From the IMG/VR virus record IMGVR_UViG_3300020045_020105, positions 29,247 through 93,246 of that record: 64,000 bases of DNA, one strand, 5' to 3'. The notes beneath the pieces were generated by a model, which saw only the letters and a program-made list of their open reading frames with translations, did no database searches and was not told where the DNA came from. Position numbers and translations under genes: made by a program. This DNA comes from a virus. Within the stretch, counting starts at the first letter, position 1. Every line of letters starts with the position of its first letter. This document shows positions 453 through 64,000 of this stretch, one piece after another.

Positions 453-457
453 AAATC

Positions 458-544: not shown

Positions 545-550
545 GATAAG

Positions 551-1024: not shown

Positions 1025-1026
1025 TT

Positions 1027-1212: not shown

Positions 1213-1213
1213 A

Positions 1214-1816: not shown

Positions 1817-1834
1817 ACTATAAAAATTAAAATC

Positions 1835-2185
1835 ATGTCAAAAGAAAAAAAAGAAATTATGATCGGTGATGAATTTACAGTAGAGTTCATCAAATCTGAA
1901 AAACCTGGTTTACCAATCTGCCGCTGTGATGGAATGGTTGGTTTTATTGATAAAGCAGAAAAGGGCATCTTTATCCCTGGGCAAACTTGGGTAGTATCAA
2001 TAGTAAAAGTATTTGATAAATTTTTGATTGTTAAGCCTCTTCTTAAGATGACATCTCGGAAAGACAATCAAAAGGATTTCCAAGCCAAATTGGATTTTTT
2101 CAAAAAAGATAAACGAGAGAGAGTTAAAGTTAAAAGAAATTATGCTTACCAAAGTAAACAAGAACTTCTTCAAGGAGAAATTTAA
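1835..2185 (+). CDS. TRAM-domain-like small nucleic-acid-binding protein
   Basis: GDEFTVEF...GLPICRCDGMVGFI...PGQTWVVSIVKVFDKF resembles the TRAM beta-barrel pattern; basic tail. Confidence 0.55.
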   Translation: MSKEKKEIMIGDEFTVEFIKSEKPGLPICRCDGMVGFIDKAEKGIFIPGQTWVVSIVKVFDKFLIVKPLLKMTSRKDNQKDFQAKLDFFKKDKRERVKVKRNYAYQSKQELLQGEI

Positions 2186-2189
2186 TCTT

Positions 2190-2244
2190 TTAAGGATTTT
2201 TAACATCCTTTAACATCTTTTAACCGAAATTTTTCGTACCTTTG
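2190..2244 (+). promoter_or_regulatory. class I promoter: 10-bp-phased TTAAC repeats plus Bacteroidota -7 box TACCTTTG
   Basis: TTAAG/TTAAC at 2190, 2200, 2210, 2220; TACCTTTG at 2237-2244. Confidence 0.8.
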
Positions 2245-2267
2245 AGAATAAATTAAAAAAACATACC

Positions 2268-3074
2268 ATGAATTTAGAAGACTTGTTATTTCCAGTAAAA
2301 ATCGTCCCATCAGTTACCTTCCTTGAGGGATATGACTTTGTAAATAAACATGAAGGTATGGTGATTGTTGAACCTGTAGGAGAAAAACCTAAAGTAGTAA
2401 ATGTACCTTCATTGGGCTATGGATTGCTTCCATTAGCAGATATTTTAATCCCACTTGAGGAAAAACTTCGTGAGTCATTCACCATCACTCCAACTTATTC
2501 ACACAGAGATCATGCTAGATTTAGTATTACTTATGTGATTGAAGGAGTAGAAGTTTTGGTTGGTAAAAAGGATAAGTTAAATCCCTTCATCAAAATCATT
2601 CACTCTTACGACTCCTCAACCATCTTTCAGGTTAAACTTGGCTTTTCAAGACAATTAACCAAGACAGGTATCATGGGAGCTACATTCCAAGACGTAATTA
2701 CATCCCATACTGTTGATATGATTGACGAAGTTATCGAAGATACAATCAATGCAGTGACTGAATTTATTGAGAACTGTGAAGATTACAAAGTTGAAGCTTA
2801 CGATTTAATCAATAAAAAGGTAACTAATGTTGAGACTCGTGTTGATCAAATTCTTGAAGAAACCGGTGAAATGCGTGGTTATAAAGACCTAATCATGCAA
2901 AGAATCGCTTTTGAAATAGCGGAAAATAAATTACCGCAAACCGATTGGCTCATTTATAATGCCATCAATTACCAATTGAATTTCAGCTCGGAAGCGCAGG
3001 AAAATATGAAAATGAAGAAAGATCAAAAGATCTACTCTTACATTGCTTCGAGCTATGCCGCGAAAATCGCCTGA
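2268..3074 (+). CDS. DUF932-family protein
   Basis: VSxxYGLLP-type and IIHSYDSS..FQVKLGFSRQL..TG motifs typical of DUF932/DUF945. Confidence 0.7.
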   Translation: MNLEDLLFPVKIVPSVTFLEGYDFVNKHEGMVIVEPVGEKPKVVNVPSLGYGLLPLADILIPLEEKLRESFTITPTYSHRDHARFSITYVIEGVEVLVGKKDKLNPFIKIIHSYDSSTIFQVKLGFSRQLTKTGIMGATFQDVITSHTVDMIDEVIEDTINAVTEFIENCEDYKVEAYDLINKKVTNVETRVDQILEETGEMRGYKDLIMQRIAFEIAENKLPQTDWLIYNAINYQLNFSSEAQENMKMKKDQKIYSYIASSYAAKIA

Positions 3075-3082
3075 TTATTAAC

Positions 3083-3126
3083 TGGTGGGGGAGGATAAGC
3101 GAACGAACGCACCCCTCCCCCTTCCA
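3083..3126 (+). other. GC-rich stem-loop in the SSB leader
   Basis: GGGGGAGG (3087-3094) pairs with CCTCCCCC (3114-3121); inner GCG/CGC; outer TGG/CCA; no U-tract. Confidence 0.6.
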
Positions 3127-34522: not shown

Positions 34523-35800
34523 ATGGAAAAATTAGAATTTACATCAATCAGAAGAGGAAACTCAATCCTACAGGGATTTGGAGTAACTACTCCAAATCAA
34601 GAACTTGTAAAAGGTAAGAAATCAGACGATAAAGAAGACGACTTCAAAGAAGACGAAACTAAGGACGAAGAATCAGAAGACGATGCTTCAAGCGAAGAAG
34701 AAACTGATAATGAAGACGAAAACGAAGAATCTGAGGACGAAACTAACGAAGACGAATCAGAAGACGAAGACGACAATTCTCCAACCGATGAAGAGTTAGA
34801 ATTACTTCAAATCATTGCCAAACATCTTGCCGGTGGTGATGAAGAAATCACAGAAAAAGAACTCAAAGAAGGTGATCCACCACATGATGGAGCAACTGCC
34901 GAACTTATCGCTTCACTCGAAAAGAAAGGTTTAATTACTTGTGAAAACGGTGATGTAACTGAAATTACAGAAGAAGGTCAGGGATTTATTTCTAACGAAG
35001 ACGACAATGACGAAACTAATGGTAATGAATCAGATAAGAATGAAGAAACTGATGAAGAGACTTCTACCGAAAATTCTAGCGACCATGACGAAGAATCAGG
35101 AGATGCTCCTGAAATGAATGATGAAGAGGAAAATAACGAAGCTCCAGACGATGAAAATAATTCTGGTGAAGATAATTCAGATAAAACTGAGGACGGTAAT
35201 CCAGTAATGGACGAACAAGAACTTCGTGCTCATGCAAAGAATACCTCAACTGAGGATTTAAAACAATTCTTAGGTTCATCTAAGGATGAATTGCAGACCA
35301 AAATTGCTACAGAAGAACTTGCAACAAGAGAAGCTGGGGGAGGCCAGAACAACGCTCAACCGGTTCCAGGTTCTCCAGAATCTCAAGCAACTCCACCTGT
35401 GCCAGGTGAAGAAGGTAAAGTAGATCCTCTTGATTTTAAAAATCCTGTAGCAGGTGAGGAAAACAAGAAAAAATTCGATGAGTGGGTTCAGAATTATTTA
35501 GAAGATCATGACAGAGAAGATTTCGAAGCCATGATTACCAAATTGATTCTCAACGACCCAAAAGAAACAAAAGTACTCAAACAACATTACAGAGAAGATT
35601 TTTCTGCCAGTTCAAGAGTTGGAAATAAAGTTGAAAGAGTAGATAATAAAGAATTTCAAAAATGGCTGGGTGATTATTTAGCTCACCAACCTTACGACCA
35701 TTTGAAACTTTATGCTATTCGTTTGCTTAAAGCTGACCCAGGAGCAATGAATGATATTAAAAATAAATACAAATCGAAATTAAGTTTGGACGACGAATAG
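34523..35800 (+). CDS. highly acidic low-complexity protein (putative head or scaffold-associated)
   Basis: long D/E/N tracts; immediately upstream of the portal. Confidence 0.7.
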   Translation: MEKLEFTSIRRGNSILQGFGVTTPNQELVKGKKSDDKEDDFKEDETKDEESEDDASSEEETDNEDENEESEDETNEDESEDEDDNSPTDEELELLQIIAKHLAGGDEEITEKELKEGDPPHDGATAELIASLEKKGLITCENGDVTEITEEGQGFISNEDDNDETNGNESDKNEETDEETSTENSSDHDEESGDAPEMNDEEENNEAPDDENNSGEDNSDKTEDGNPVMDEQELRAHAKNTSTEDLKQFLGSSKDELQTKIATEELATREAGGGQNNAQPVPGSPESQATPPVPGEEGKVDPLDFKNPVAGEENKKKFDEWVQNYLEDHDREDFEAMITKLILNDPKETKVLKQHYREDFSASSRVGNKVERVDNKEFQKWLGDYLAHQPYDHLKLYAIRLLKADPGAMNDIKNKYKSKLSLDDE

Positions 35801-35850
35801 TTTTTGTTTACATGGTTAGTTAGTTTAGGTTAGTTAGTTTTTTGGTTTTG

Positions 35851-35884
35851 AGAGCTCCCTCCGACGGAATGTGAGGGAGCTTTT
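35851..35884 (+). terminator. hairpin, probable terminator
   Basis: AGAGCTCCCTC...GAGGGAGCTTTT, preceded by GTTA repeats. Confidence 0.65.
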
Positions 35885-35903
35885 AAATAATTTGAGATTT
35901 ATT

Positions 35904-37628
35904 ATGACAAGAAGAAAAGATATACAGCAGAAAAAATTGATTAGTTACAAGGATGAAATGAAAACCATGAAACTAAGCGATATTTCTACTCACATAGAAG
36001 AACTTAACATTAAGAAAATGCTCTTAATGGATGAAGCCCTTCAATCTGGAGATCCTGCCAGAATAATCAAAGCAAGAAACTTGTGGAGTGAAGAACAACA
36101 GAAATTCCAATCACAAGGAAAATCCTATATATTTGACCCCTTCCAGTTAAACGACTCACTTGGATATAGAGGTACAGCTTCTCAGCTTACATTTGATACA
36201 TTACGTCAAATGTGCTCTACTCCAATTATTAGAGCAGTAGTTAGTACAAGAGTTGAACAAGTAGCAGGATTTACAACTGCTCAAGAAACAAGCTCACAAA
36301 AAGCAGGATGGTCTATTCGTCGTAAACGCAAAGTATTTGCTTCTGCAAAAGATGGAAATAAAGAAGAAACAACAGACGAAGACAAACGAATTATAGAGCA
36401 GCTTATTACTTTCATTATGGAAGGTGGTACAAGTGCTCAAGAATGGGATGCAGACGATTTTGAGGGGTTCATGCGTAAAATCACCAAAGATTCGCTTGAA
36501 CTTGACCAATCAACTTTTGAAATAGTTGATAATTACAAAGGTATTCCAACCGAGTTTTTTGCTACAGATGGAGCAACTTATCGTTTATCTCGTATTCACA
36601 AAGAAAATGATTTAGATTCACCACTTCCAATCAAAGGATACTATCCAAAATATGTTCAATTATATCAAGGACTTGTAAGAAGCGAGTTTTATCCTTGGGA
36701 GTTAAATTTTGGAATAAGAAATCAATCAACAGATATCCGTAGAAACGGTTACGGTTCAGCAGAAGCAGAAGAATTAATTCGTATTATAACTTGGTTGTTA
36801 AATACAGATACTTATAACGGTAACTTTTTCAGTGTAGGTTCTTCTCCAAAAGGCTTACTTAAAGTAAAAGCAGGAGTAAACGGAGATAAGTTAGACGAAT
36901 TTAGACAATCTTGGATTCAGCAGGTAGCAGGAGTTAAGAACTCTTGGAAAACACCTGTATTAAATGCAGACGAAGTTGATTGGATTGATTTACAGAAGTC
37001 TAACAATGATATGGAATTCACAGCATTCCAAGAATATCTTATCAAGGTAGCTTGTGCTATTTTTAAAATTGATCCAAGTGAAATCGGTTTCTATTTGAGT
37101 GGAAATACAGGACAAGCTCCAACTTACGAAGGAAACAACGAATATAAACTTGATTTCTCTCGTGATAAAGGTTTAAAACCATTAATGAGAGCTCAACAAA
37201 AATGGATAAATAAACATATCGTTAATCGTATCAACGACCAATTCGAGTTCTATTGGACAGGATTAGAAAATGAAGACGAAAACGGAATGCTTGATATGGA
37301 TATCAAGAAATTAGCCAACGGTGGTATGTCTATGGAAGATTTCTTCTATAAATACTCAGGCAGAAAATTCGACCCAAAATATGATACAATTCTTAATGCT
37401 ATTTATGTTTCTATCAAACAAATGCAAATGGCTGGAAACCCCCAAAGTAATGATGCGATTGATCAAGTTACAGAGGACGACTCAGACAATCCATTTAAAA
37501 TGCAAAATCAAGTAGATAAAGATAATAACCCATTCAATAATTTAATTAAACAAGGTGTAAGTGAAGATAATCCATTTGCAAAAGAATTAGCTTTACATAC
37601 TCAAAATTCATTCTTAAATAAAAACTAA
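35904..37628 (+). CDS. portal protein (SPO1/Twort-like)
   Basis: TRVEQVA.F, F..FMRKI..DSL.LDQ, GYG....E, YN.NFFS.G..PKG.L, N.WKTPV, DMEF....EYLI..ACA.F.IDP.EIGF, S.DKGL.PL. Confidence 0.93.
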   Translation: MTRRKDIQQKKLISYKDEMKTMKLSDISTHIEELNIKKMLLMDEALQSGDPARIIKARNLWSEEQQKFQSQGKSYIFDPFQLNDSLGYRGTASQLTFDTLRQMCSTPIIRAVVSTRVEQVAGFTTAQETSSQKAGWSIRRKRKVFASAKDGNKEETTDEDKRIIEQLITFIMEGGTSAQEWDADDFEGFMRKITKDSLELDQSTFEIVDNYKGIPTEFFATDGATYRLSRIHKENDLDSPLPIKGYYPKYVQLYQGLVRSEFYPWELNFGIRNQSTDIRRNGYGSAEAEELIRIITWLLNTDTYNGNFFSVGSSPKGLLKVKAGVNGDKLDEFRQSWIQQVAGVKNSWKTPVLNADEVDWIDLQKSNNDMEFTAFQEYLIKVACAIFKIDPSEIGFYLSGNTGQAPTYEGNNEYKLDFSRDKGLKPLMRAQQKWINKHIVNRINDQFEFYWTGLENEDENGMLDMDIKKLANGGMSMEDFFYKYSGRKFDPKYDTILNAIYVSIKQMQMAGNPQSNDAIDQVTEDDSDNPFKMQNQVDKDNNPFNNLIKQGVSEDNPFAKELALHTQNSFLNKN

Positions 37629-37792
37629 TGCCATTTATTCCAGTAAAAGTCAATTATTTAGATAGGACAAGATATCCTAAACTTGTTGATCCAATCGAGC
37701 AACAATTTAAGGAAAATCATAATCATGTAACTAAAGAAATGCTTAAGGCTTTAGCAGAAAAAATGGTTTCATTTACAAAACCTTTAGACTAA
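37628..37792 (+). CDS. small hypothetical protein (54 aa, not in ORF track)
   Basis: TAATG overlap with the portal stop; MPFIPVKVNYLDRTRYPKLVDP... Confidence 0.6.
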   Translation: MPFIPVKVNYLDRTRYPKLVDPIEQQFKENHNHVTKEMLKALAEKMVSFTKPLD

Positions 37793-37799
37793 ACCTATT

Positions 37800-38036
37800 A
37801 TGCAAGATGGCGGGATTTTAAGTTCGAAATTATCTGAAAAGATAAAAATAGCGTTAAACTTATCTCCCACAGAGGAGGTAGAATATTTAATTTATCTTAT
37901 TACAAAACTCAATAAGTGTAGATTAAATAGAGTACTTAATGAAGTAAGCTCTGAATATATAGTAAAACATTATGCAGATTTTCAAGAATATCAAATAGAA
38001 CAGAAAGAAGAAGATTATGGATTTGTTAGTCAATAG
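37800..38036 (+). CDS. hypothetical protein
   Basis: ORF track. Confidence 0.55.
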   Translation: MQDGGILSSKLSEKIKIALNLSPTEEVEYLIYLITKLNKCRLNRVLNEVSSEYIVKHYADFQEYQIEQKEEDYGFVSQ

Positions 38037-38547
38037 AGAAGATATATTAAAAAAGAATCTGGAGAAAAGTTTAACGACTACTTCAGGAGCTGCCCTTAAA
38101 AGAGAAGATCTTGAAGGAGCACCAAAATTGTGTAAAGGTGGAGATGAAGATGATACAGATAAAAGTGTTGTTTGTGTTATTTTTAAAGGAAATGAAGTAC
38201 TTGTAGGTAAATCTTTACATGAAGACGACAGAAAAGGTTTATGGGTATTTGTCGGTGGAAGTGTTAAAGAAGAAGAAACTTTGACAGATGCTTTTAATAG
38301 AGAATTACTTGAAGAAGCAGGAATACAAGCTACTCCAACAGGCAGAGTAATTTCAAATGAAGATATGCCCAATTTATTCTTTATTGAAGGGGATTTAAAG
38401 GGTACCGATTCAGAAATGAAACCAAATCCAGAATTTGAAGAGTTACAATGGATGGAGCCTTACGATTTATTTGGTAAAACATTGAAGAGTAATGAAAAAA
38501 TATTAACTCGTTTAAGTAGAACAAGACGAAATTTAAATAAAAAATAA
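38017..38547 (+). CDS. Nudix hydrolase with a capsid-like N-terminal leader
   Basis: Nudix box GGSVKEEETLTDAFNRELLEEAGI. Confidence 0.88.
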   Translation: MDLLVNREDILKKNLEKSLTTTSGAALKREDLEGAPKLCKGGDEDDTDKSVVCVIFKGNEVLVGKSLHEDDRKGLWVFVGGSVKEEETLTDAFNRELLEEAGIQATPTGRVISNEDMPNLFFIEGDLKGTDSEMKPNPEFEELQWMEPYDLFGKTLKSNEKILTRLSRTRRNLNKK

Positions 38548-38549
38548 AT

Positions 38550-38828
38550 ATGAAAATGAGCGAAACATTTGCTGGATTAAGCTATGATAATCTAGCAGCT
38601 TTAGTTCCTTCTGGAAGTGGAGCAGGAATAAATATTATAAGACTTGTCGGAAATGATGGAGTAGATTATCCTGCTCCTGCTGATTTAGATATTTCTGGTC
38701 CTTTAGCAGCTTGGAATCCATTAGATTCAGAAGTTTCTGCTTTGAATGTAGCAGGAGTAGATACTATAAGATTTGTAGTAGCTCCTCTTGTAGGAGATTT
38801 CCCATTAATAATCTATACTAAGAAATAA
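38550..38828 (+). CDS. hypothetical structural or adaptor protein
   Basis: ORF track; beta-rich composition. Confidence 0.55.
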   Translation: MKMSETFAGLSYDNLAALVPSGSGAGINIIRLVGNDGVDYPAPADLDISGPLAAWNPLDSEVSALNVAGVDTIRFVVAPLVGDFPLIIYTKK

Positions 38829-38832
38829 AAAT

Positions 38833-39726
38833 ATGAAAAAATCAATTTTGATAACTTGCTCATTAGGAATTATCTTAATATCAGCAGTTACTAGTTTAAA
38901 GTGGAGACAGATTTCAGATGCAACTCCAACGGTAACAGAAATTAACTTTGTAGACGGAGTAACCTCCCCAATTCAAGCGCAATTAAATTCAAAAGTTGCT
39001 ACTATTGATTTGGTTAATCCTTGGCCTGCCATTAGAGATACTATTACAGCAAGGTTTGATAACACATCATTGACAGGCATTCCAACCGCACCAACAGCAG
39101 TAGCAGGAACAAATAACGCTCAGGTTGCTAATACAGAAAGTGTTATTTCTAACTTAAAAGCAAGATTTGATCTATTAAAAAAATTAGGAAGTGATATAGT
39201 TGGCATCCCAGTTGCTCCAGAATTTACAAATACATCTTCATCTGCGTTAATTGATAATGTTAGAATGGAAGTTTTAGTGTATGTTCCTAATGCATGTACC
39301 ATTCACGGAATTAGATTCGTTATGGCTGTTGCTGGAAATTATACGCCAGACAATTATAACGGAATAGGACTAAGTACTCTAAGTGGAATTAATATACATT
39401 TGGTGGCGAGTACTACCAATGATACTGCCGATCCTAATATGTTTGAGGCTACTGCGAATACTATTGTTACATCAACATTTTCTTCGTCTTATTCTGCCGC
39501 TGCTGGATTCTATATTGTTACTTTTTTATACAATAGTTCAGCCCAGACAACAGCACCATCAATTATAGGAGCCAATACACCACAAAGCGCAATGTACTCA
39601 AAGACTTTTTTTGGAACCAGTGTTAATATGGCCGCTTCAAAAACAGCATCAAGCACTATTCCGTCTGACACGGATACAAATACGTCTGTTACTAATGGGT
39701 CGTGTCCTTACTTACTAATTTTTTAA
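38833..39726 (+). CDS. fibre-like protein with signal peptide
   Basis: MKKSILITCSLGIILISA leader; EINFVDGVTSPIQAQLN and LTGIPTAPTAVAGTNNAQVANT phage fibre motifs. Confidence 0.7.
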   Translation: MKKSILITCSLGIILISAVTSLKWRQISDATPTVTEINFVDGVTSPIQAQLNSKVATIDLVNPWPAIRDTITARFDNTSLTGIPTAPTAVAGTNNAQVANTESVISNLKARFDLLKKLGSDIVGIPVAPEFTNTSSSALIDNVRMEVLVYVPNACTIHGIRFVMAVAGNYTPDNYNGIGLSTLSGINIHLVASTTNDTADPNMFEATANTIVTSTFSSSYSAAAGFYIVTFLYNSSAQTTAPSIIGANTPQSAMYSKTFFGTSVNMAASKTASSTIPSDTDTNTSVTNGSCPYLLIF

Positions 39727-39729
39727 ACC

Positions 39730-42700
39730 ATGAAAAGGATATTATTCTTTATTGCCTTACTTATTTCAATCTCAGTAAATGCAACGGTTTATCACGTCGG
39801 AATGGGTGGGGATTTTACAACATTGGCTCAGGTAAACGCTCATGCTTTTGTTGCAGGAGACCAAATATTATTTCAACGTGGTAGCACCTTTTATGGCTCA
39901 TTAACTGTTAAAAACTCCGGAACATATGGGAACCCTATTGCTTTTGGTGCTTATGGCACAGGAGATAACCCGGTAATAACTGGCTTTACCACTATCACAG
40001 AATGGGCAAACGAAGGCGGTGGTATTTATTCTAAAGTCATTACTTCAGAATCAGCAACGAATATGGTTACCGTGGATGGAGTACAATATGCAATGGGTCG
40101 TTATCCTAGTACTGGATTCTTGTCCTATGAAGATTGTAATGCTAATATTTCAATAACAGACAATCAATTAGGTGATGCGATAAACTGGACTGGAGCAGAA
40201 GCTGTCATAAAAAAGAACGGTTATAATATTGATAGGTGTTTGATAACTAATCACACTGGAAATGTTTTAACCTATACAAATTTAGGCGGTACAGGAAATG
40301 GGACGGCAGGATATGGTTATTTTATCCAAAATGATTTAAGGACTTTAGATCAATTTGGTGAGTGGTATCACGACACTGCAACCGGAAAGTTTTATATGTA
40401 TTTTGGTGTTGTTAATCCTGCAACTAAAATTATTAAGGCGGCAACTTTAAATAGAGTAGTCGCAAATACAGCTGGGTATGACTATATAATAGTTGACGGT
40501 ATAACTGCAACAGGTTCAATTTTTTCAACCATTGATTTTCTATCAAGTACTGACAATTGCTCAATTATAAACTGTTCGGTTTATTTTTCTGGACTTGATG
40601 GTATTCGAATAACGGGATCATCTGGATTAATTGATTCTAATGTTGTAAATAACTGTAATGTTGGTGGTATTGCCATTGGTGCGTCTGGTGCTACTAATAA
40701 TACAGTGACTAATAATTTGATCAGTAATTGCAATCTTCTTGATGGTCAAAAAAATAAAAATACGGTTGGGTTTTCGTTTCCTTGCGGTATTTTAGCTGCT
40801 TATGGAGGAACTAACATTCAATATAATAGAATTGAGAATGTTGGGTACAATGGAATGCATGTAGGAGGAAATAACTCAACAATAAAAAATAATTACATAT
40901 ACAATTCAGTCTCAAGACTTGATGATGGTGGGGCAATATATACAAATTCCAACCATACTAATTTTGTTATCGATGGTAATATTATTATCAATACAGTTGG
41001 ATATATAGGTGGTACTCCATTGACTTCAGTAAATGCAGAGGGTATATATTTAGATGAATTATGTAATGGGGTTACCGTACAAAACAATTCTATTGTGAGT
41101 TGTTCGGGTGCTGGAATAAAACTACATAAAGCTCATAACAACATCATACTAAATAACACCTGTTTTGATAATGGGATGGGATTGTATTTACTAAATTTTA
41201 CTACTAATTCAGAGTTATATGGAAATACTATTAGTGGAAATAAATTTATTGCTAAAACTGCTTTGCAGATACCGCTAAAATACAGGAGTTCGACTGACGA
41301 AATCGCAACATTCGGAACTACCGACAATAATATATACGCACGACCAATTGATGATACAGCTCCTATATACGCATATCAACCATCGCTTAGTTCTGCTCAA
41401 AACTATTCAGTGTCACAATGGAAAACATTTAGTTCCCTTGATGCAAGTTCATTGGGTTCTCCAAGGACTATATCTAATGTCGATGAGCTTCAATTTGAGT
41501 ATAACGATACCAAATCAGCCAAATCAGTCACTTTAAGTCAGCCAATGGTTGACATGGCAGGTGTAAAGTGTTCAGTAACAGTAACGCTACAACCATTTAC
41601 GTCCTTGGTTCTCATTCCGGCAGCAGCTTACTACGTGAGTTCAGTAGGCAATGATTCAAACGACGGATTAACGCCTGAAACGGCGTGGGAAACGATAGAT
41701 AAAGTTAATTCCACAACATTTTCAGCAGGTGATAATGTTTTATTCAAACGTGGCGATTCGTTTTACGGAACGATTACGGTAAATAGTGCTGGTTCGGAAT
41801 CAAATCCAATTACTTACGGAGCTTATGGCAGTGGAAATAAGCCAATCATAACGGGTTTTACTTCTATAACAGGATGGACTAACGAAGAAAACGGTATTTA
41901 TTCAAAAGTAATAACATCTTCTTCAAATACAAATATGGTTACCGTTGATGGTGTAAATATGCTTATGGGTCGGTATCCAAATACCGGATATTTGAGTTTT
42001 GAAACAGCATCTACCAACGTTTCAATTACAGATAATCAATTGATAGGTACACCAAATTGGACGGGAGCTGAGGTTGTAATTAGAAAGAACGACTGGACAC
42101 TTGACAGGTGTACAATTACCAATCACTCTACAACAACAATAATATATACTAGTCAAGGCTCAACTCAGAACGCAACCGCTGGATATGGTTATTTTATTCA
42201 GAATGATTTAAGGACTTTAGATCAGCTTGGAGAATGGTATCACGACACAACAACTGGAAAATTTTACATGTATTTTGGCGCAGTTAATCCTACAACAAAA
42301 ACGGTTAAAGTTGCCTCAATTGATAACCTATTTTATAATTCGTCTTGGATGGCAGAATACATTATTGTAGATGGATTAAATTTTCAGGGAAGCATTAAGA
42401 GTGCTTTTAATTTTCCTCAATGGTATACAGCGCATAATACTATTCAGAATTGTGATATTTTATTTGCAGGAGTAGATGGTATTAGTTGCGAATCTCCTTA
42501 TCTAAGTGTTCTGAATAATACTATTTCGGACTGTGCTAATAAAGGAATTTATACTAACCAAACTAATGAGATAATTACTGGAAATACTATATCAAAGATA
42601 GGATTAGTAGTTGGTCAGAGTATGACAGGCATAACCTCAGGGATTAGTTGTGGAAATGGAAATACTATTTTAATCCAAAACAACAATGTTCAAAATACGG

Positions 42701-43548
42701 GTTATAATGGTATATCGATAGGTTCATATAGCTCAAATTCTAGTACGATTAAAAACAATTACATAAACAACTTCGGGTTAAACCTTAATGATGGTGGTGG
42801 TATTTACACAACAGGATCGCACACATCTCTATTGATTGATGGCAATATTATTTTAAATGCGACAGGAAATTATCAGGGAACAATCGGAACCTCACTAACA
42901 TTTGAAGGTATTTATCTAGACGAATTTGCAAGTGGGATAACTGTTTCGAATAATACAATTGCAAATTGCAGCCATGATGGTATCAAATTGCACAAGTCAA
43001 GCAACTGTACATTGACAGGAAATACCATTTATAACAATGCAAATGGTATTGATTATCTAAATTCGGCAAACACATCTGTAATTACAGGGCATATATTATC
43101 TAATAATACAATTATTGCTAAAACAACCACTCAGATATGTTTGTCCCTGCAATGCTATTTTATTAATGATATTTTAAATTTTGACATTACGGCCAATAAT
43201 AATTACTATGCACGACCAATTTTAGATACAAATACATTTTTAGCGGCTCAACCTTCAAATTGGGGCAATTATATGACTTTAGAACAATGGAAAGTTTATA
43301 AGTCTCAGGATGCAAACTCTAAAAAATCGCCTCAGACCATTACATCTGAATCTGATTTGCAGTTCGAATATAATGCCACTTCGACGCCAAGAACTATCGT
43401 TCCTAATTGGGCTTCAATAGATGTTACTGGAAGAGATTATCGTGCGCCATTTATTTTACAACCTTATGAGTCATTGATTTTAATCAAAGACTATACGCCA
43501 TCTATTTATGTCCCTTATGGTGTAAATGGTAAATTATGGAAATTTTAA
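39730..43548 (+). CDS. signal-peptide-bearing, internally duplicated right-handed beta-helix (pectin lyase-like / depolymerase-like) protein
   Basis: MKRILFFIALLISISVNA|T; two ~620-aa units, each with GD..LF.RG..FYG, PI.FGAYG.G..P.I.G, DGG.IYT, GIYLDE. Confidence 0.85.
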   Translation: MKRILFFIALLISISVNATVYHVGMGGDFTTLAQVNAHAFVAGDQILFQRGSTFYGSLTVKNSGTYGNPIAFGAYGTGDNPVITGFTTITEWANEGGGIYSKVITSESATNMVTVDGVQYAMGRYPSTGFLSYEDCNANISITDNQLGDAINWTGAEAVIKKNGYNIDRCLITNHTGNVLTYTNLGGTGNGTAGYGYFIQNDLRTLDQFGEWYHDTATGKFYMYFGVVNPATKIIKAATLNRVVANTAGYDYIIVDGITATGSIFSTIDFLSSTDNCSIINCSVYFSGLDGIRITGSSGLIDSNVVNNCNVGGIAIGASGATNNTVTNNLISNCNLLDGQKNKNTVGFSFPCGILAAYGGTNIQYNRIENVGYNGMHVGGNNSTIKNNYIYNSVSRLDDGGAIYTNSNHTNFVIDGNIIINTVGYIGGTPLTSVNAEGIYLDELCNGVTVQNNSIVSCSGAGIKLHKAHNNIILNNTCFDNGMGLYLLNFTTNSELYGNTISGNKFIAKTALQIPLKYRSSTDEIATFGTTDNNIYARPIDDTAPIYAYQPSLSSAQNYSVSQWKTFSSLDASSLGSPRTISNVDELQFEYNDTKSAKSVTLSQPMVDMAGVKCSVTVTLQPFTSLVLIPAAAYYVSSVGNDSNDGLTPETAWETIDKVNSTTFSAGDNVLFKRGDSFYGTITVNSAGSESNPITYGAYGSGNKPIITGFTSITGWTNEENGIYSKVITSSSNTNMVTVDGVNMLMGRYPNTGYLSFETASTNVSITDNQLIGTPNWTGAEVVIRKNDWTLDRCTITNHSTTTIIYTSQGSTQNATAGYGYFIQNDLRTLDQLGEWYHDTTTGKFYMYFGAVNPTTKTVKVASIDNLFYNSSWMAEYIIVDGLNFQGSIKSAFNFPQWYTAHNTIQNCDILFAGVDGISCESPYLSVLNNTISDCANKGIYTNQTNEIITGNTISKIGLVVGQSMTGITSGISCGNGNTILIQNNNVQNTGYNGISIGSYSSNSSTIKNNYINNFGLNLNDGGGIYTTGSHTSLLIDGNIILNATGNYQGTIGTSLTFEGIYLDEFASGITVSNNTIANCSHDGIKLHKSSNCTLTGNTIYNNANGIDYLNSANTSVITGHILSNNTIIAKTTTQICLSLQCYFINDILNFDITANNNYYARPILDTNTFLAAQPSNWGNYMTLEQWKVYKSQDANSKKSPQTITSESDLQFEYNATSTPRTIVPNWASIDVTGRDYRAPFILQPYESLILIKDYTPSIYVPYGVNGKLWKF

Positions 43549-43566
43549 TTCAATATCTATTATAAA

Positions 43567-44502
43567 ATGATATTTACCCCAAATCAAATAAATGAACTTC
43601 TTACTATAATAGATAGATTTACTTTATATTTCATAGTATCAAATATAGGGGTAGAATCCCTTACAACTGAAGATAAAGTAGAACTCACTAATTTTGGAGT
43701 AGATTGGAAATTATTCTTAGGTAAAGAATCCCAACTTAAACAAATGTTTAGAATGGGGATTCTTTCAGGTATTTTAGGACATGAAGCAACAAAGCAACTT
43801 GAGTTTAGTGATTTTAAAAAATATATAGAAAGAGGTCAGTTTCTTCCAATGACAAATGCAGAGGAAGAAGCATTTAAATTAATAGAACACCAAGCTTATT
43901 TTGACACAAAAAAACAAGGAAATCGAGTAAAAGAAGTCCTTACCAATACACATTTAGGAGTCTCAAATAAATATCGAGTAGAATTTGAATCTCAAGTACT
44001 TACGGCTGCTCAAAAGAATCTAAAACAAAGAGAATCTATTACTGAAATGGTTTTAGATTTAGGCAATAAGACAGGAGATTGGTCTCGAGACTTTCTAAGA
44101 ATTTCTGATTATGTAATGCATACTGCTTTTGAAGAAGGTAAAGCTGCTTCTTTTAAAAGCTTAGAAAACCCAGATCCTCTTGTTTATAAAGATGTTTTTG
44201 GGGGTGCTTGTAGGCATTGCATCAAAGCTTATTTGAGCGGTGGATTAGGAAGCAAACCAAGAGTATTTCGCTTATCTGAGTTACTTGCAAACGGCACAAA
44301 TATAGGAAGAAAACAAGCAGAGTGGAAGCCAGTAGTAGGTAGTCAACATCCTTACTGTCGTTGTTCACTCAGAACTCTTCCTTTAAACTATGATTGGAGT
44401 GAAGAAACAAGATCTTTTTCACTGGTGACTCACTATCAACGTAAAGTAGAAAGACAAAGTAAGGTTAAGATAGTAATTGGAGATAAAGTTTTCGAACGCT
44501 AA
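43567..44502 (+). CDS. head morphogenesis protein (Mu gpF/SPP1 gp7-like)
   Basis: W.RD..RI, AC.HC, HPYCRC. Confidence 0.8.
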   Translation: MIFTPNQINELLTIIDRFTLYFIVSNIGVESLTTEDKVELTNFGVDWKLFLGKESQLKQMFRMGILSGILGHEATKQLEFSDFKKYIERGQFLPMTNAEEEAFKLIEHQAYFDTKKQGNRVKEVLTNTHLGVSNKYRVEFESQVLTAAQKNLKQRESITEMVLDLGNKTGDWSRDFLRISDYVMHTAFEEGKAASFKSLENPDPLVYKDVFGGACRHCIKAYLSGGLGSKPRVFRLSELLANGTNIGRKQAEWKPVVGSQHPYCRCSLRTLPLNYDWSEETRSFSLVTHYQRKVERQSKVKIVIGDKVFER

Positions 44503-44513
44503 TATATAGAGAT

Positions 44514-45233
44514 ATGATAACAATTAAAAATAATAAATTTGGCTATTTTATGCCAATGACCCTGGAAAAAGCTCAAAAGGGAGCAGCTAAAAGTGAGTTC
44601 AAAATGATTGTTGGCGGTTGTATGTCAACAAATGAAGAAGATACAGATGGACAATTTCTTGAACCAAGTGGAGCTGATTTTGGTCCTCTCTTAAAGAGTG
44701 GTTTTATAAATTGGCATCACTTAGCAAAACAAGACCCAGATGCTATTATTGGTTTACCTTTAGAGGCTTATGTAAAGGGAAATAAGGCATTTATTAAAGC
44801 ACTTCTTCACAGTGACTCTGAACTCGCCAAAAAAGTATATAATCTCCAAATGAGATTGATGAAAGCAGGTGGACAAAGAACTCTAGGATGGAGTTTAGAA
44901 GGTGATGTACTGGAAAAAGACCCATTAAACCCAAAAAGAATCACCAAGTATACTGTAACTCATGTAGCAATCACTCCAATCCCTAAAAACGGTGGTACTT
45001 ATATGGAGATTCTGCAAAAAGGGGGAGATTCAAATGAACTACTACAACTTTCAGATTCATTATATTGTGAAATATCTAATAAAGATATAGTTTATAAAGA
45101 TACCAATACAATGTCTTTTGAAAAGGCAGTTGTAACTCTACACCAAGCAGCTATTCAAGGTTTATTGAGTGAAGCTCAAATATTAATTATAGAAGCACAA
45201 TTGCGTGAGGGAAAATTTAAGAATTTCAAATAA
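44514..45233 (+). CDS. prohead protease
   Basis: ST.EED.DGQ, GFINWHH, IIG.P, LGWSLEG, VAIT..PKN. Confidence 0.88.
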   Translation: MITIKNNKFGYFMPMTLEKAQKGAAKSEFKMIVGGCMSTNEEDTDGQFLEPSGADFGPLLKSGFINWHHLAKQDPDAIIGLPLEAYVKGNKAFIKALLHSDSELAKKVYNLQMRLMKAGGQRTLGWSLEGDVLEKDPLNPKRITKYTVTHVAITPIPKNGGTYMEILQKGGDSNELLQLSDSLYCEISNKDIVYKDTNTMSFEKAVVTLHQAAIQGLLSEAQILIIEAQLREGKFKNFK

Positions 45234-45249
45234 AGATTTTTGAAATTTC

Positions 45250-45280
45250 TTGGAGAATCCTAGGATTCACAATATATTTG
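45250..45280 (+). promoter_or_regulatory. class II promoter with perfect palindrome GAATCCTAGGATTC
   Basis: TTGGAGAATCCTAGGATTCACAATATATTTG upstream of the scaffold and capsid genes. Confidence 0.85.
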
Positions 45281-45327
45281 CTGAGTAATTCAAAACAGGT
45301 ATTTATCACACTGTTAAAACAATAATT

Positions 45328-45960
45328 ATGAGTGTTATTCCAACAAAAGAACAAGTTAATAGTGCCCTAGCCTTTTTCCACCTAGGACAAAGAAAAACAG
45401 AGAATCCATTTTCTACTTCAAATAAGTCTTCTTTTGAGAAATCCAAGGATAGTAATATCCTTGGTACTCTCAATGAAGAAAAAGCACTGGAACATTTTGA
45501 AAAAGCACAAGAATTGTTTGAAAAAGCAGAAGAAATTCTAACTTTATTTGGTTCATTAAAAGATCAAGGAGTTGCCTTTAAAGAACAAATTGAGTCTTTT
45601 AATGCTGAAAAAGAATCATTTGCAAAAGCAATGGGTAATCTTGGTGAACTTCAAGCTTCTTTTGAACATTTAACCAAAGATGTAGAAAAAATCAGCAATA
45701 CCCCAAAACCTCGCAAATCATTCACCAATATTGAAGAAGTAGAGCGTTTTGAAAAATCAAAAGGTGGAGAAGGTACCACATTATCTATTTCACAACACAA
45801 AGCACAAATTAGCGATATCTTATTCGCTGGTTCTTTAGAGAAAGGTGGTAAAGGTGATCCTATTCTTATGAATGCCGTTATGCAACTTGAAGGAGCAAAT
45901 TCACTTCCTATCGAAGCTCTAAAATTCTTGAGTACAAAGAAAATAAACATAGTTCAGTAA
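45328..45960 (+). CDS. putative scaffold protein
   Basis: between protease and capsid; repeated FEKS/FEKA and P..RKS motifs. Confidence 0.65.
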   Translation: MSVIPTKEQVNSALAFFHLGQRKTENPFSTSNKSSFEKSKDSNILGTLNEEKALEHFEKAQELFEKAEEILTLFGSLKDQGVAFKEQIESFNAEKESFAKAMGNLGELQASFEHLTKDVEKISNTPKPRKSFTNIEEVERFEKSKGGEGTTLSISQHKAQISDILFAGSLEKGGKGDPILMNAVMQLEGANSLPIEALKFLSTKKINIVQ

Positions 45961-45981
45961 AAACACATAAATTCGATAACA

Positions 45982-47487
45982 ATGAACAATCTAAGCATCA
46001 GCCTTGCCGATTACGGTGTAAATGGACCTGGTCAAATGTCTGTTGGCGATCTGGAGACTTTACAAAAATCTTTGGAAGCTACCCATTTAACTGGTAGAGA
46101 CACCACGAACCTCACGAACGCTTCCGGAGCTCCTCTTAAAGTAGAATCATTAGAAAATACCCTAAAGATCCTTACCTTCAAAGAACAGGATATCCAATTC
46201 TGGAAAAGAATCCCTAAATTACCTGCCTACAATACCGTAGAAGAATTCAACGAATTATCTGAATACGGCCAAACAGGTGGTGGTTTTACCGATGAAGGTG
46301 AATTACCAGCAGAAGATAGCTCGGTTTACACAAGACGTGCGCAATACGTGAAATACATGGGTAAAACCCGCAGTGTTTCTCATCCAATGCAGCTCGTTAC
46401 TACCATGATCGGTAATATTATTCAGCAGGAAATTAACAACGGTACCTTGGCTCTGTTGCGCGATGCTGATGAAGCTTTATTCTTTGCAGACGAATTGATC
46501 GTTCCTCAGGAATGGAATGGTTTAATGACTCAGCACAAAAATGCCTTTACTTCTTTGGATTTATGGCAAGGGTCAGAACAAGTTATCGATGCAAGAGGTC
46601 AGTCTCTTTCAGAAGGTATGGTAGAGCAAGCTGCTCTTACTTGTGTTGACAATTTCGCTGCTCCGGATTTCTTGATGGCTCCACCTCAGGTTTTATCTAC
46701 CTTTGCAACTTCGTTCCACGAAAGCAAATTGATTCAACCAGGTATCGGTAATATCGATGCTGTTGTAGGTCAGAGAAACAAATCATTTATGTCTCAGTTT
46801 GGACCTCTTGAAATGACTTACGACAAGTTCTACAAGAAATCACGTCCAAAAATGATGGCTGCCGCTGCTTCAAATCAGAACGCTCCGACTGCTCCAACCG
46901 CTGATGCTGCTATTCCAAAAGTAGCTGCTGCTGAAGCTGGCGCTTATAAATTTGTAGGTGCTGAAGCTGGAGATTATTTCTACGCTGTTTCTGCTATCAA
47001 CAAATATGGCGAATCTGTTTTGGTTGACCTTTCAACTGCCGGTTTACCTGCTGCTTTAGTTACTGTTGCTATTGGCGATTCTGTTTCTTTGAAATGGGCT
47101 GCCGGTGCTGGTGGTACTACTGTTACAGGTTACAAAATCTACCGTAGTCGCAAAAACCCAACTACTGCACTTGCCGATACTCCAATGTATCCAATTGCTC
47201 GTATCTCGGTTGCTGAAAAAGCTGCAGGTTTTGACGGTGCTGCTGCCGGTCTTGCAAAAGATAAAAACAGAGTTCTCCCAGGTTGTGATGAAGCTTTCGT
47301 ATGTCAGAATGATATCGAAGTTTACAGTTTCAAACAGCTTGCTCCTCTTATGAAAATGGACCTTGCCACATTGGCTCCTGCAACTCGTTTTATGCTGTTG
47401 TTATACGGTACTCCAATGCTGTATGCTCGCAAGAAAATGGTTCGCATCATCAATGTTGGGCCAGTTTATGGTCAAGCATATTTGTAG
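45982..47487 (+). CDS. major capsid protein (Herelleviridae-like)
   Basis: KSL...SGAPLKVESLE..LK.LT, F..EG.LP....S...R, QLAPLMKMDLA......F..LLYG. Confidence 0.93.
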   Translation: MNNLSISLADYGVNGPGQMSVGDLETLQKSLEATHLTGRDTTNLTNASGAPLKVESLENTLKILTFKEQDIQFWKRIPKLPAYNTVEEFNELSEYGQTGGGFTDEGELPAEDSSVYTRRAQYVKYMGKTRSVSHPMQLVTTMIGNIIQQEINNGTLALLRDADEALFFADELIVPQEWNGLMTQHKNAFTSLDLWQGSEQVIDARGQSLSEGMVEQAALTCVDNFAAPDFLMAPPQVLSTFATSFHESKLIQPGIGNIDAVVGQRNKSFMSQFGPLEMTYDKFYKKSRPKMMAAAASNQNAPTAPTADAAIPKVAAAEAGAYKFVGAEAGDYFYAVSAINKYGESVLVDLSTAGLPAALVTVAIGDSVSLKWAAGAGGTTVTGYKIYRSRKNPTTALADTPMYPIARISVAEKAAGFDGAAAGLAKDKNRVLPGCDEAFVCQNDIEVYSFKQLAPLMKMDLATLAPATRFMLLLYGTPMLYARKKMVRIINVGPVYGQAYL

Positions 47488-61427: not shown

Positions 61428-62588
61428 ATGTTAATTACCCTAATAACATTAGAAGAGTTAAAAGAAGCTATTCTAGAAGAGTTTCTAAATAACACAAGTA
61501 AGGTAACTAAGGTATCTCAAGACTCAGTCTTAATGGGGATTATTTTTGGTACAGCAAAAGTAGCTCAAAAAGCTATGAAGGAACTTGCTATTGCAGAAAG
61601 TCATTTTTTACCAGATGAAGCATTTGGAGCTCATCTAGATCAAATTGCTGAAGATAGAGGCATAGCACCAAGACAGGGAGCCTCCAAAAGCTCTACTTCT
61701 ATCATAGTTAGTGGAGATGAAGGAACTACTTATACTCAAGGAGTAAATACAGTGGTAGGAAACAATGGAATTGTCTTTGATCTTGAAGAAACTGTCGTAC
61801 TAGGTCCTCTAAAATGGGCTTATGTAAAAATAAGAAGCCAAGTTGAAGGAGTTATTGCAAACATAGCACCAAATTCTCTAAAGAGAATATCCCCTATCCC
61901 AATAGGGCACATTGCCTTAACAAATGAGTTTGGAGCTTCTGGAGGAAGAGATATTGAACAAGATGATCACTTGAAGAAAAGAATAAAGGAGAGTATTAAT
62001 TTATTAGCTCAAGATACTCTAAGTAAAATAGAAAATGTCCTTCAATCACAAAACTCAGATATTTTAAAAGTATATCATCAAGGTAGAAATGCTCTAGGCG
62101 ATATTATTTTAGGAATAGCAACCCAAAATGGAGTTAACCTTACAGAAGAAGAACTAGGTACACTATTAATTTATCTTATTCCTTATTTAGGAATATCAAG
62201 CTTAAATTACAATTTTTACGGTGAACAGGGAATTATACTTCAAAATATTATCTACACTCCAATTGATTTAGATTTCAGAATAAGTATTGCACCAGGATAT
62301 TCACCAGATACAATTCGTCAAGAAATTCAAACCAAACTAAATAAATTAATTGATTATAGATATTGGGATGAAGCAGTAGGGTTAGTTGAGTGGGATGACA
62401 TTTTGGCTACAATAAAATCTATTGAAGGAGTTAAATATGTTCCAGACCAATATTTAACACCAAATTATGATATTAAAATCCCTGTAAATACCTTACCTAG
62501 GTTTAGAGGATTTTTAATGAGAGATTTAGATGGTGTCTTGATCCTTAGTTCAAATTCATTATTTCAAATATATTATCCTAGCATATAA
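61428..62588 (+). CDS. baseplate J-like protein
   Basis: A.G.HLD.IA..RGI.PR, G...NI, N.....GG.DIE.DD.LKKRI, I.SIEGV..V. Confidence 0.88.
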   Translation: MLITLITLEELKEAILEEFLNNTSKVTKVSQDSVLMGIIFGTAKVAQKAMKELAIAESHFLPDEAFGAHLDQIAEDRGIAPRQGASKSSTSIIVSGDEGTTYTQGVNTVVGNNGIVFDLEETVVLGPLKWAYVKIRSQVEGVIANIAPNSLKRISPIPIGHIALTNEFGASGGRDIEQDDHLKKRIKESINLLAQDTLSKIENVLQSQNSDILKVYHQGRNALGDIILGIATQNGVNLTEEELGTLLIYLIPYLGISSLNYNFYGEQGIILQNIIYTPIDLDFRISIAPGYSPDTIRQEIQTKLNKLIDYRYWDEAVGLVEWDDILATIKSIEGVKYVPDQYLTPNYDIKIPVNTLPRFRGFLMRDLDGVLILSSNSLFQIYYPSI

Positions 62589-63304
62589 TGTTAGTAAAAA
62601 ATTTAGACAATACTAAAATATTAGCTTTTTCAGACAAAGCACCGGCTGATATTTCCTTTATTTGGTATAATCTAAATAATGGTAAAAAGTACTTCTATAA
62701 CCTAAATACCAATTTATGGGAAGAAGTGCTTTTATCACAAAAAGGAGTATTTCTACCATTTTTAACAACAAAACAAAAAGTAAGTAATGGAAATGCTATA
62801 TTTTTTCCTTTTGATAATGAAGGAGAAGTAAAAGACCAAAAAGTTGCTCTATTATCTGTTGAAGGAGGTTCAAGTTCAATTCCTGGATTCTTACAAGAAG
62901 AATATTTTATAATCTCTATTTTAGAAGATGGAAGATATGTAATTAAAAATAAATATGCTACAGAAGATCAAGAGGGACTTGTAAAAAAAGCAACAGATGA
63001 GGAAGTTTTAATTGGTAAAGAAAATACTAAATATATAACCCCATTCCAATTATTTGAGTTTTATAAACCAGCAAAAATAGAATTCTCAAATACTTCAACC
63101 CCATTAATAGAAAATTATGAGGAGTTGTATTTAGAACTTTATTCTAATTATCCTAGCGTTCAACTATTAACCTATTCAGGAGATGATCAAGAATGGGAGC
63201 ATAAGCAAACAGAACCAACTTGGCATAGAGTAGATGGAATCTTACAAAGTATAACTTTTGATTTACCAGATTTATATAGTGGATATATATTACTAAAACG
63301 ATGA
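62588..63304 (+). CDS. tail fibre or fibre-adaptor protein
   Basis: ATEDQEGLVKKATDEEV..G....YITP.QL, a T4 gp34/gp12-type fibre repeat. Confidence 0.6.
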   Translation: MLVKNLDNTKILAFSDKAPADISFIWYNLNNGKKYFYNLNTNLWEEVLLSQKGVFLPFLTTKQKVSNGNAIFFPFDNEGEVKDQKVALLSVEGGSSSIPGFLQEEYFIISILEDGRYVIKNKYATEDQEGLVKKATDEEVLIGKENTKYITPFQLFEFYKPAKIEFSNTSTPLIENYEELYLELYSNYPSVQLLTYSGDDQEWEHKQTEPTWHRVDGILQSITFDLPDLYSGYILLKR

Positions 63305-64000
63305 AAAAAATACTCGCTTCTATATTATTACTCTTCTCTATTTTAACAAATGGACAAGATATAAAACCAATAGACCCTATTAATTTTAGAGCTATTCAGA
63401 GTGCTTCTTTTAGTGTATATGCAATTGATAGTTCTATCTGGCTTTATAAGGGAATGGCTTTTTCCCCTAATCAGTGGATTAAACTTGCAACAGATGCACA
63501 TTTAAGAAGATACTATGTTCCTTACGATAATGCTAATAGAGATGTTAACCTAAACACTCACTCAGTTGCTACTTCAGGAATAAAGTTAAATACCGTTAAC
63601 CCATTGGTAGTAATCAACTCAGGAGAGATTGGGTGGAATGCTCATGATATGACCGTGAATTTAAAAACACCAAATACTATAATACAATTAAGTCAAGAAC
63701 AAACCTTTCCAGTAAAGAATATTACTGGCTCAACTCTGCTAAATGGCAGATTAGTTAGGATGACTGGACATGATTCAGTAAATGATTACTATATAGTAGA
63801 ATATGCAGACAATTCAACAGAACAATCAGCACTTGCAGATTTTATGTTGTCGTCAGATATATTGAATGGAGAGATGGGTCTTGCAACGAAAACAGGTATA
63901 GTTCATGAACTAAATACTATTGGCGGAACATCTCAAAATCCAGTATATTTGGGGACTTCTGGACTATATACTTTTTTAAAACCAGAATATCCAGCAAAAG
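63301..64000 (+). CDS. fibre-like protein with signal peptide, 3'-partial (not in ORF track)
   Basis: MKKILASILLLFSILTNG|QDIKP...; YVPYDNANRDVNL and VKNITGSTLLNG...DI.NG..G.AT..GIV..LNT fibre motifs; open to the window end. Confidence 0.8.
   Translation, partial: MKKILASILLLFSILTNGQDIKPIDPINFRAIQSASFSVYAIDSSIWLYKGMAFSPNQWIKLATDAHLRRYYVPYDNANRDVNLNTHSVATSGIKLNTVNPLVVINSGEIGWNAHDMTVNLKTPNTIIQLSQEQTFPVKNITGSTLLNGRLVRMTGHDSVNDYYIVEYADNSTEQSALADFMLSSDILNGEMGLATKTGIVHELNTIGGTSQNPVYLGTSGLYTFLKPEYPAK

Follow-up and report, generated by a model that had tools for sequence, protein, structure and literature searches.

A putative mobile three-gene phage cassette encoding a small signal-less protein, a leader-bearing fibre and a signal-peptide beta-helix enzyme

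This report concerns three adjacent genes of a phage genome available as IMG/VR record IMGVR_UViG_3300020045_020105. The window, i.e. the whole stretch of DNA analysed (64,000 nucleotides), is the last 64 kb of this 93,246-bp genome, which bears direct terminal repeats. Positions refer to the window unless a genome or locus position is indicated. The three genes encode a signal-less protein of 92 amino acids (aa), a 297-aa fibre protein with a hydrophobic N-terminal leader and a 1272-aa beta-helix enzyme with a signal peptide. According to sequence comparisons, they are one mobile three-gene cassette. The anatomy of the three genes, the conservation of the trio, the exchange of the fibre tips and the conservation of the leaders in distant homologues were observed here. 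The preferred explanation, still tentative, is that the cassette encodes a host-recognition appendage whose fibre and enzyme would be exported and would meet the particle only at lysis, the 92-aa protein being its likely dock. An earlier note on this DNA had described a signal-less open reading frame (ORF) followed by an ORF starting with an MKK leader. Both ORFs were recovered on the + strand as described, the 92-aa one without a leader; the unit is larger than the note had it, its third member being the signal-peptide enzyme encoded downstream (39730-43548).

The three proteins and their recurrence as a cassette

The 297-aa protein starts with MKK, followed by about 12-15 hydrophobic residues and by the small-residue stretch AVTS. 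On inspection, this leader shows the geometry of a Sec/signal peptidase I substrate (basic n-region, h-region, small residues at -3/-1), with ISA↓V, AVT↓S and VTS↓L as candidate cleavage sites. Five homologous cassette fibres share this geometry. From one homologue to the next, substitutions in the hydrophobic core are conservative, and five of the six fibres retain the AV(T/S)SLKWRQISD that comes after it. The leader pointed out in the earlier note is thus conserved and of Sec type. In Bacteroidota, most but not all Sec/signal peptidase I substrates show Gln at +1 (Q-rule; PMC5837995, PMC10653852). None of the candidate sites of the 297-aa protein has Gln at +1, the nearest Gln being residue 26; the divergent fibre of locus L012 could expose one (PPT↓Q). 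The leader region includes a 19-residue uncharged stretch with K and R after it. A lipoprotein signal at Cys residue 9 was considered and rejected, this Cys being unconserved and too near the N-terminus.

Two fibre-shaft motifs had been proposed downstream of the leader. The second one is supported by profile searches: residues 57-108, which include it, match PHROG tail-fibre families 2631, 454 and 7032 (E 1.6e-6, 7.6e-6 and 1.6e-5, respectively), the match spanning the motif alone and not the whole family profiles. The first one is part of the conserved N-terminal module and is found in every cassette homologue. Neither the 297-aa nor the 92-aa protein gave a match in sequence searches of Pfam, NCBIfam and the PDB.

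The AlphaFold2 model of the 297-aa protein (26 homologues) contains a helix (residues 2-27), a poorly defined part (28-95), a second helix (96-117) and a beta-sandwich (about 118-297). The latter has a predicted local distance difference test score (pLDDT) above 90, in agreement with the beta-sandwich-like tip expected from the sequence. In structure alignments, the tip matches the Bxb1 tail tip (9d93; Z 16.9), the Douge central fibre gp20 (8zdp; Z 15.8), chain Z of the cyanophage A4 capsid (9jwb; Z 14.9) and a phi812 baseplate protein (Z 11.7). The Bxb1, Douge and A4 matches cover 165-169 aligned residues and stand clearly above the following rows. Lower scores were obtained with esterases bearing a carbohydrate-binding module (CBM; Z 9-10) and with CBM6 and CBM32 modules (Z about 6); the tip is 10-15% identical to solved CBMs. 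The best matches in the BFVD library of viral models are tips of minor tail and collagen-like fibre proteins. The tip domain has 42 sequence homologues, about half of them with leaders and several with Gln at +1. According to the model, the tip has the fold of a particle-surface domain and is probably glycan-binding. Since this fold occurs on both tails and heads, it does not discriminate between these locations.

The 92-aa protein has no hydrophobic leader at its N-terminus. It belongs to no Pfam, PHROG or NCBIfam family, and an Atlas search gave no usable match. It is 42% identical to a 95-aa ORF of locus L002 (E 2e-18), and an exhaustive profile search recovered 23 cluster representatives, many of about 160 aa with an extra N-terminal domain. 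These relatives indicate that the ORF is a real, conserved gene. AlphaFold2 predicts a six-strand beta-sandwich at residues about 26-92 (pLDDT 80). The best rows of the fold search are neck proteins of DT57C (Z 6.4) and phage 812 (Z 5.8), with root-mean-square deviations (rmsd) of 6-8 Å, the noise guide of the tool being 7-8; Foldseek found nothing at E <= 0.001. The gene is syntenic with the fibre gene in 9 non-redundant loci. Two leaderless proteins of 285-288 aa, P0060 and P0061, fuse a domain of the 92-aa type to a C-terminal fibre tip. This tip is 35% identical to the tip of the leader-bearing fibre of L004 (E 4e-15) and matches PHROG minor-tail and virion-structural families. The fusion argues, from sequence, that the small protein and the fibre tip are parts of one assembly. 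The 92-aa ORF had been called adaptor-like. Its synteny and the fusion make this plausible, and the fusion fits the idea without proving contact; a clear fold match is lacking (Z <= 6.4). No hit came from viral scans for contexts of P0049 or P0060, nor from scanning genomes with P0010.

The 1272-aa protein carries a canonical signal peptide (residues 1-18, ...VNA↓T); its predicted +1 residue is T, not Gln. It matches Pfam PF13229 in four stretches (2.3e-37), as well as NosD and GH141_M, and TIGR03804 (3.6e-19). After the signal peptide come two right-handed beta-helix units in tandem, each of about 630 aa; they are 53% identical over their first 400 aa. An N-terminal particle-binding domain of the tailspike type is absent: the mature enzyme and its homologues start at the beta-helix cap (T-V-Y-H-V...).

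A tail of 20-30 residues follows the last beta-sandwich in most beta-helix homologues (loci L002-L044). It carries one or two short motifs of the form (N/S/A)-G-K-x-aromatic/hydrophobic (here ...GVNGKLWKF). Judging from its sequence, it could be a docking peptide or a sorting signal. The C-terminal domain of a type IX secretion system substrate was considered; the conserved tail (about 20-30 residues) is far too short for one.

The trio recurs in IMG/VR loci L002, L003, L004, L007 and L015 and in a 101-kb metagenome contig (L012). The six cassette fibres have residues 1-55 in common (leader, near-invariant AV(T/S)SLKWRQISD, first motif). Beyond residue 55 or so, they bear at least three unrelated C-terminal domains. 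The cassette is located behind two unrelated portal families, a 585-aa type in this genome (PHROG 12/15361) and a 792-aa type (PHROG 6547), and the subtypes of the small protein do not track the portal type. The three genes therefore move together as one unit. In other phages, the module is found among tail-fibre-like genes.

A related locus was found in Segetibacter aerophilus (NZ_BJYT01000004; L014 6968-10533), beside a terminase-like gene. It encodes a fibre with a Q-rule leader and the same tip, and a leader-bearing beta-helix enzyme 34% identical to the 1272-aa protein over its whole length, leader included (E 1e-67). A different small ORF lies upstream of its fibre gene: this 141-aa ORF is unrelated to the 92-aa one. 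The locus is probably a prophage or a remnant and points to Chitinophagia among the hosts of the module.

In the lineage with the 792-aa portal, the cassette is always followed by a conserved protein of about 140 aa (L002 12751-13182; L004 5890-6309; equivalents in L015 and L026). It has one central membrane span with coiled-coil-like flanks and could act in lysis or, in the membrane, as a partner of the exported fibre and enzyme.

Conservation of the leaders

A profile built from the N-terminal 400 residues of the enzyme recovered 31 viral loci from many metagenomes. Leaders were counted in the 29 non-redundant homologues complete at their 5' end (27-53% identity) and were scored by a hydrophobicity threshold and by eye. 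The threshold gave 26 leader-bearing enzymes and inspection added two (28/29). The gene directly upstream of the enzyme gene encodes a leader in 22 of the 29 loci.

Leaders are also found at the tail-fibre position of the genome, 3' of the baseplate wedge gene (61428). The gene starting at 63301 exits the window (63301-64000) and continues at genome positions 70-3084, owing to the terminal repeats. This gene and the following 951-aa gene (genome 3065-5920) both encode Q-rule leaders. The genes that follow (genome 5976-7384 region) encode a small membrane protein, a 158-aa product with a leader and an endolysin-like protein. No signal-less long-fibre candidate was found in the tail module or in the genes after it. 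The earlier note had seen the same layout at 62588-64000 as at the cassette. A signal-less ORF does precede a leader-bearing fibre gene there; the signal-less one, a 238-aa ORF at 62588, is unrelated to the 92-aa ORF.

Because the leaders are kept across distant homologues and because Q-rule leaders occur in tip homologues and in the tail-fibre-position genes, the leaders are considered to be functional features under selection for export and not chance hydrophobic starts, as far as sequence conservation can tell.

A natural leaderless cassette was found in locus L035 (5273-7802; IMGVR_UViG_3300033562_000292), with a 792-aa portal and a 112-aa small ORF upstream. Its 196-aa protein and its 642-aa beta-helix enzyme both lack a leader, and the enzyme starts at the position just after the leader of its relatives.

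Runs of four to six consecutive genes with Sec leaders surround the beta-helix enzyme gene in loci L020 (4812-11483), L027 (2555-8679), L038 (3150-7710) and L041 (173-9941). Clusters of leader-bearing genes can therefore be much larger than the pair found here.

The Bacteroidota O-glycosylation sequon D-[ST]-[AILVMT] was counted in the four fibre-type proteins that carry leaders (window 38833-43548 and 63301-64000; genome 70-5920). It was observed 7 times versus 15.9 expected from shuffles (Poisson P ~0.01, depletion). In the rest of the genome, 73 occurrences were observed versus 62.7 expected.

Destination of the exported proteins

According to the preferred reading, the cassette would provide a cytoplasmic 92-aa beta-sandwich protein, a short fibre with a Sec leader and a Sec-exported tandem beta-helix enzyme degrading polysaccharides. 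The fibre would be made of a leader, a constant N-terminal module of about 55 residues, fibre motifs, a helix and an exchangeable lectin-like tip. Fibre and enzyme would be exported by the host Sec system, would fold in the periplasm and would meet the particle built in the cytoplasm when holin and endolysin breach the envelope. The 92-aa protein would be the particle-side dock for the constant module of the fibre. On the particle, the lectin tip would bind a surface glycan and the enzyme would cut it. A bolder version, less likely than not, is that of one appendage built in two compartments. The dock would be mounted in the cytoplasm, the exported fibre and depolymerase would snap on between holin firing and outer-membrane rupture, and the genes would travel between unrelated phages because the dock comes along.

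The host-recognition reading is favoured by the swapping of tips, by a tip fold found on solved phage particles (Z 15-17), by the apparent selection for export and by the P0060/P0061 fusion. The other fibre genes of the same phage, at the tail-fibre position, also encode Q-rule leaders. The strongest support from outside this genome is a cultured precedent, Cellulophaga phage phi18:3, which shows by analogy that leader-bearing proteins can end up in particles. The fibre of Chryseobacterium phage MA9V-3 is signal-less and L035 lacks both leaders, which suggests that such proteins reach the same place, and seem to work there, whether they are exported or not. The exported-fibre arrangement proposed in the earlier note is thus retained for its leader-bearing fibre and its conserved signal-less partner, without its location on the head.

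Several points weigh on the other side. We know of no mechanism or experiment by which a periplasmic protein joins a tailed-phage particle. The phi18:3 proteins are not homologous to those of the cassette, and their value as a precedent is that of an analogy. An enzyme without N-terminal anchor has the architecture of a free secreted enzyme. The 297-aa protein has no Gln at +1 and has basic residues after its leader, and this leader may stay uncleaved and act as a membrane anchor. The modelled fold of the 92-aa protein has no significant match. The cassette lies behind two unrelated portals and in varied contexts, and no conserved docking partner is visible outside it in the sequences compared. 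The host O-glycosylation sequon is not enriched in the leader-bearing proteins of this genome.

In the main alternative, a real possibility considered less likely than the host-recognition reading, fibre and enzyme would be exported and would never join the particle, acting instead on the envelope or matrix of the infected cell itself. The enzyme would degrade capsule, extracellular polysaccharide or O-antigen from the periplasm or after release, and the lectin-like fibre, perhaps anchored in the membrane by its uncleaved leader, would hold the substrate. Either receptors would be removed, with the result that superinfection is excluded and fewer progeny are lost on debris, or release would become easier. 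A signal peptide followed directly by the beta-helix cap, the leader kept in 28 of 29 homologues, the small holin- or spanin-like membrane proteins adjoining the cassette in several loci and its movement between unrelated sets of structural genes all agree with such a role. Q-rule phage proteins have been read as envelope modifiers in a survey of Porphyromonas phages (PMC10367356). However, purely secreted proteins account poorly for tips exchanged on an unchanging N-terminal module, the hallmark of receptor-binding proteins carried on particles. They also account poorly for a leaderless 92-aa partner whose domain is fused to the fibre tip in relatives, for the leaderless cassette of L035, for the leader-bearing proteins detected in phi18:3 particles by tandem mass spectrometry (MS/MS) and for the leaders of the only tail-fibre candidates of this phage.

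The head fibre proposed in the earlier note was deduced from gene position alone. It would be an appendage of the capsid or neck, brought there by a 92-aa protein binding the capsid/portal region. The cassette does lie between the portal gene and a MuF-like gene, and a portal gene is found just upstream in 10 of the 29 loci. The capsid-surface trimer of A4 gp25 has the fold of the tip (Z 14.9; PMC12002296), and several weak fold matches of the 92-aa protein are neck or adaptor proteins. This location is nevertheless improbable. The portal families upstream are unrelated and are not followed by the subtypes of the small protein, the module is among tail-fibre-like genes in most other loci, the neck matches are at noise level (Z <= 6.4, rmsd 6-8 Å) and tail tips match the tip fold at least as well. 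The consistent linkage to one capsid or portal type expected of capsid decoration or head-fibre proteins was not found, given the two portal families and the tail-fibre-like clusters. Even less probable is that the hydrophobic N-termini are not export signals, being instead buried segments (e.g. a trimer core) or start-codon artefacts of ordinary cytoplasmic fibre and tailspike proteins. AlphaFold2 does give residues 2-27 of the fibre as one helix, and the leader and the next 30 residues or so are conserved as one block. Against this stand the canonical n/h/c geometry with small residues at -3 and -1, hydrophobic cores that vary freely between conserved flanks, homologues with the Gln at +1 specific to Bacteroidota, the L035 enzyme starting right after the leader position of its relatives and the Segetibacter homologue aligning from residue 1, leader included.

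Current understanding places the whole assembly of tailed-phage particles in the cytoplasm. For phages of Bacteroidota, the conserved leader on fibre and depolymerase genes challenges this understanding. Should the exported parts be incorporated into the particle, a late step of its assembly has to get across a membrane barrier, and host secretion and periplasmic folding or modification shape the host range. Should they never be, these phages carry a widespread, undescribed class of secreted enzymes remodelling the envelope. The cassette is a convenient test case, being small and mobile, with a signal-less partner fused to the tip in relatives and a natural leaderless variant.

Genomic setting and comparison with known systems

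The genome has a GC content of about 32%, and its + strand carries nearly all of the genes. For the major capsid protein, identity is 50% with Bacteroides phages DAC16-23, 38% with Chryseobacterium phage MA9V-3 and about 35% with SPO1-like phages. From these relatives and the baseplate wedge gene, the phage is most likely contractile-tailed with a Bacteroidota host. The features of the region are listed in Table 1. The 92-aa and 297-aa ORFs are 2-4 nt from neighbouring genes, with gaps of 3-4 nt inside the trio. Protease, scaffold and capsid genes are located 3' of the MuF-like gene.

Table 1. Features of the portal-to-MuF region of the window and evidence for their assignment
Feature	Position	Strand	Evidence or remark
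Portal protein	35871-37628	+	PF04860 at 1.3e-16 and PHROG portal matches; bounds the region upstream
Two small ORFs	37628-37792, 37800-38036		Between portal and NUDIX genes
NUDIX hydrolase	38017-38547	+	PF00293 at 4.1e-15; directly 5' of the cassette
92-aa signal-less protein	38550-38828	+	ORF, without hydrophobic leader
297-aa leader-bearing fibre protein	38833-39726	+	Leader, PHROG fibre match, AlphaFold2 tip
Leader of the 297-aa protein (residues 1-22)	38833-38898	+	MKK, hydrophobic core, AVTS
Fibre-shaft motifs of the 297-aa protein (residues 36-52, 79-100)	38938-39132	+	PHROG match; alignment of six fibres
Beta-sandwich tip of the 297-aa protein (residues ~118-297)	39184-39723	+	AlphaFold2, fold matches
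1272-aa beta-helix enzyme with signal peptide	39730-43548	+	Pfam, TIGR03804
311-aa MuF-like minor head protein	43567-44502	+	Structure neighbours; downstream boundary of the region

The earlier note had placed the fibre between the portal gene and gpF. The portal assignment holds; gpF is MuF-like by structure neighbours and by identity to MA9V-3. The 311-aa protein has no Pfam match to Phage_Mu_F (PF04233), nor any Pfam hit at E <= 0.1. Its Atlas predicted-structure neighbours include proteins with PF04233 (template modelling score 0.47-0.82), and it is 33% identical to the product of the equivalent gene of MA9V-3 (E 2e-61). Its designation as MuF-like is a lead, drawn from predicted structures, rather than an established family membership. 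The NUDIX gene recurs in the head-gene region of this phage group. It is a stand-alone gene here and in MA9V-3 (L005 11619-12326) and is part of a 775-aa fusion in L007 (11019-13346). A scan of 35500-46000 gave fewer promoter-like sites than shuffled sequence and about as many terminator-like sites. In a cultured-phage collection, neither the 297-aa protein nor the 13-kb region had a relative; the 1272-aa protein and both tail-fibre-position proteins had only short matches, to uncultured records.

Phage phi18:3 (NC_021794) also infects a Bacteroidota host. Its consecutive genes gp085, gp086 and gp087 encode proteins with Q-rule Sec-type signal peptides, annotated in the record as virion or tail proteins from MS/MS. 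Unlike the phage described here, phi18:3 is a podovirus. Its three leaders have Gln at +1, whereas the two cassette leaders do not, and no family of small signal-less partners was identified in it. No sequence similarity was detectable between gp083-087 and the cassette proteins.

The Bxb1 tail tip and Douge gp20 share with the tip the presence of its fold in a fibre-like virion protein (about 168 aligned residues, rmsd about 3 Å). Identity is 9-12%, and both are long proteins without a leader, made in the cytoplasm of hosts of the Gram-positive type, whereas here the domain ends a 297-aa protein with a secretion leader. A4 gp25 is an auxiliary cement protein with an N-terminal anchor and a CBM, forming trimers on the threefold axes of the capsid, and may also bind host glycans according to its authors (PMC12002296). 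Like the cassette fibre, it is short and combines an anchor with a domain of CBM fold (165 residues aligned with the tip); it is carried on the particle surface. Unlike it, gp25 has no leader, fibre motifs or partner genes (14% identity); a place on the capsid threefold axes would be hypothetical for the cassette fibre.

Tailspike depolymerases of the P22 and CBA120 TSP types likewise have a right-handed beta-helix, have their genes among those of structural proteins and are paired with receptor-binding components. They have an N-terminal particle-binding domain and no signal peptide, the reverse of the 1272-aa enzyme, which differs also by its two tandem catalytic-type units and its short conserved C-terminal tail. 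In the related phage MA9V-3 (PV245944), a 1459-aa signal-less beta-helix fibre gene occupies the equivalent position of the head module. With small ORFs and the NUDIX gene, it lies between the MuF-like gene and the protease gene, i.e. after the MuF-like gene, whereas the cassette precedes it. Beyond a 37-residue patch, no homology was detectable between the head-module proteins of MA9V-3 and the cassette proteins.

The cassette leaders resemble those of Q-rule substrates in their geometry, and several tip homologues and the tail-fibre-position genes expose Gln at +1. They differ by their own predicted +1 residues, which are V, S or L (297-aa protein) and T (1272-aa protein). No description of exported fibre or depolymerase cassettes was found in the open literature searched. 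The nearest published statement concerns Porphyromonas phages, some of whose genes of unknown function were noted to follow the Q-rule (PMC10367356). The present case adds a defined three-gene mobile cassette, a signal-less partner backed by a fusion, a count of leader conservation and a natural leaderless variant.

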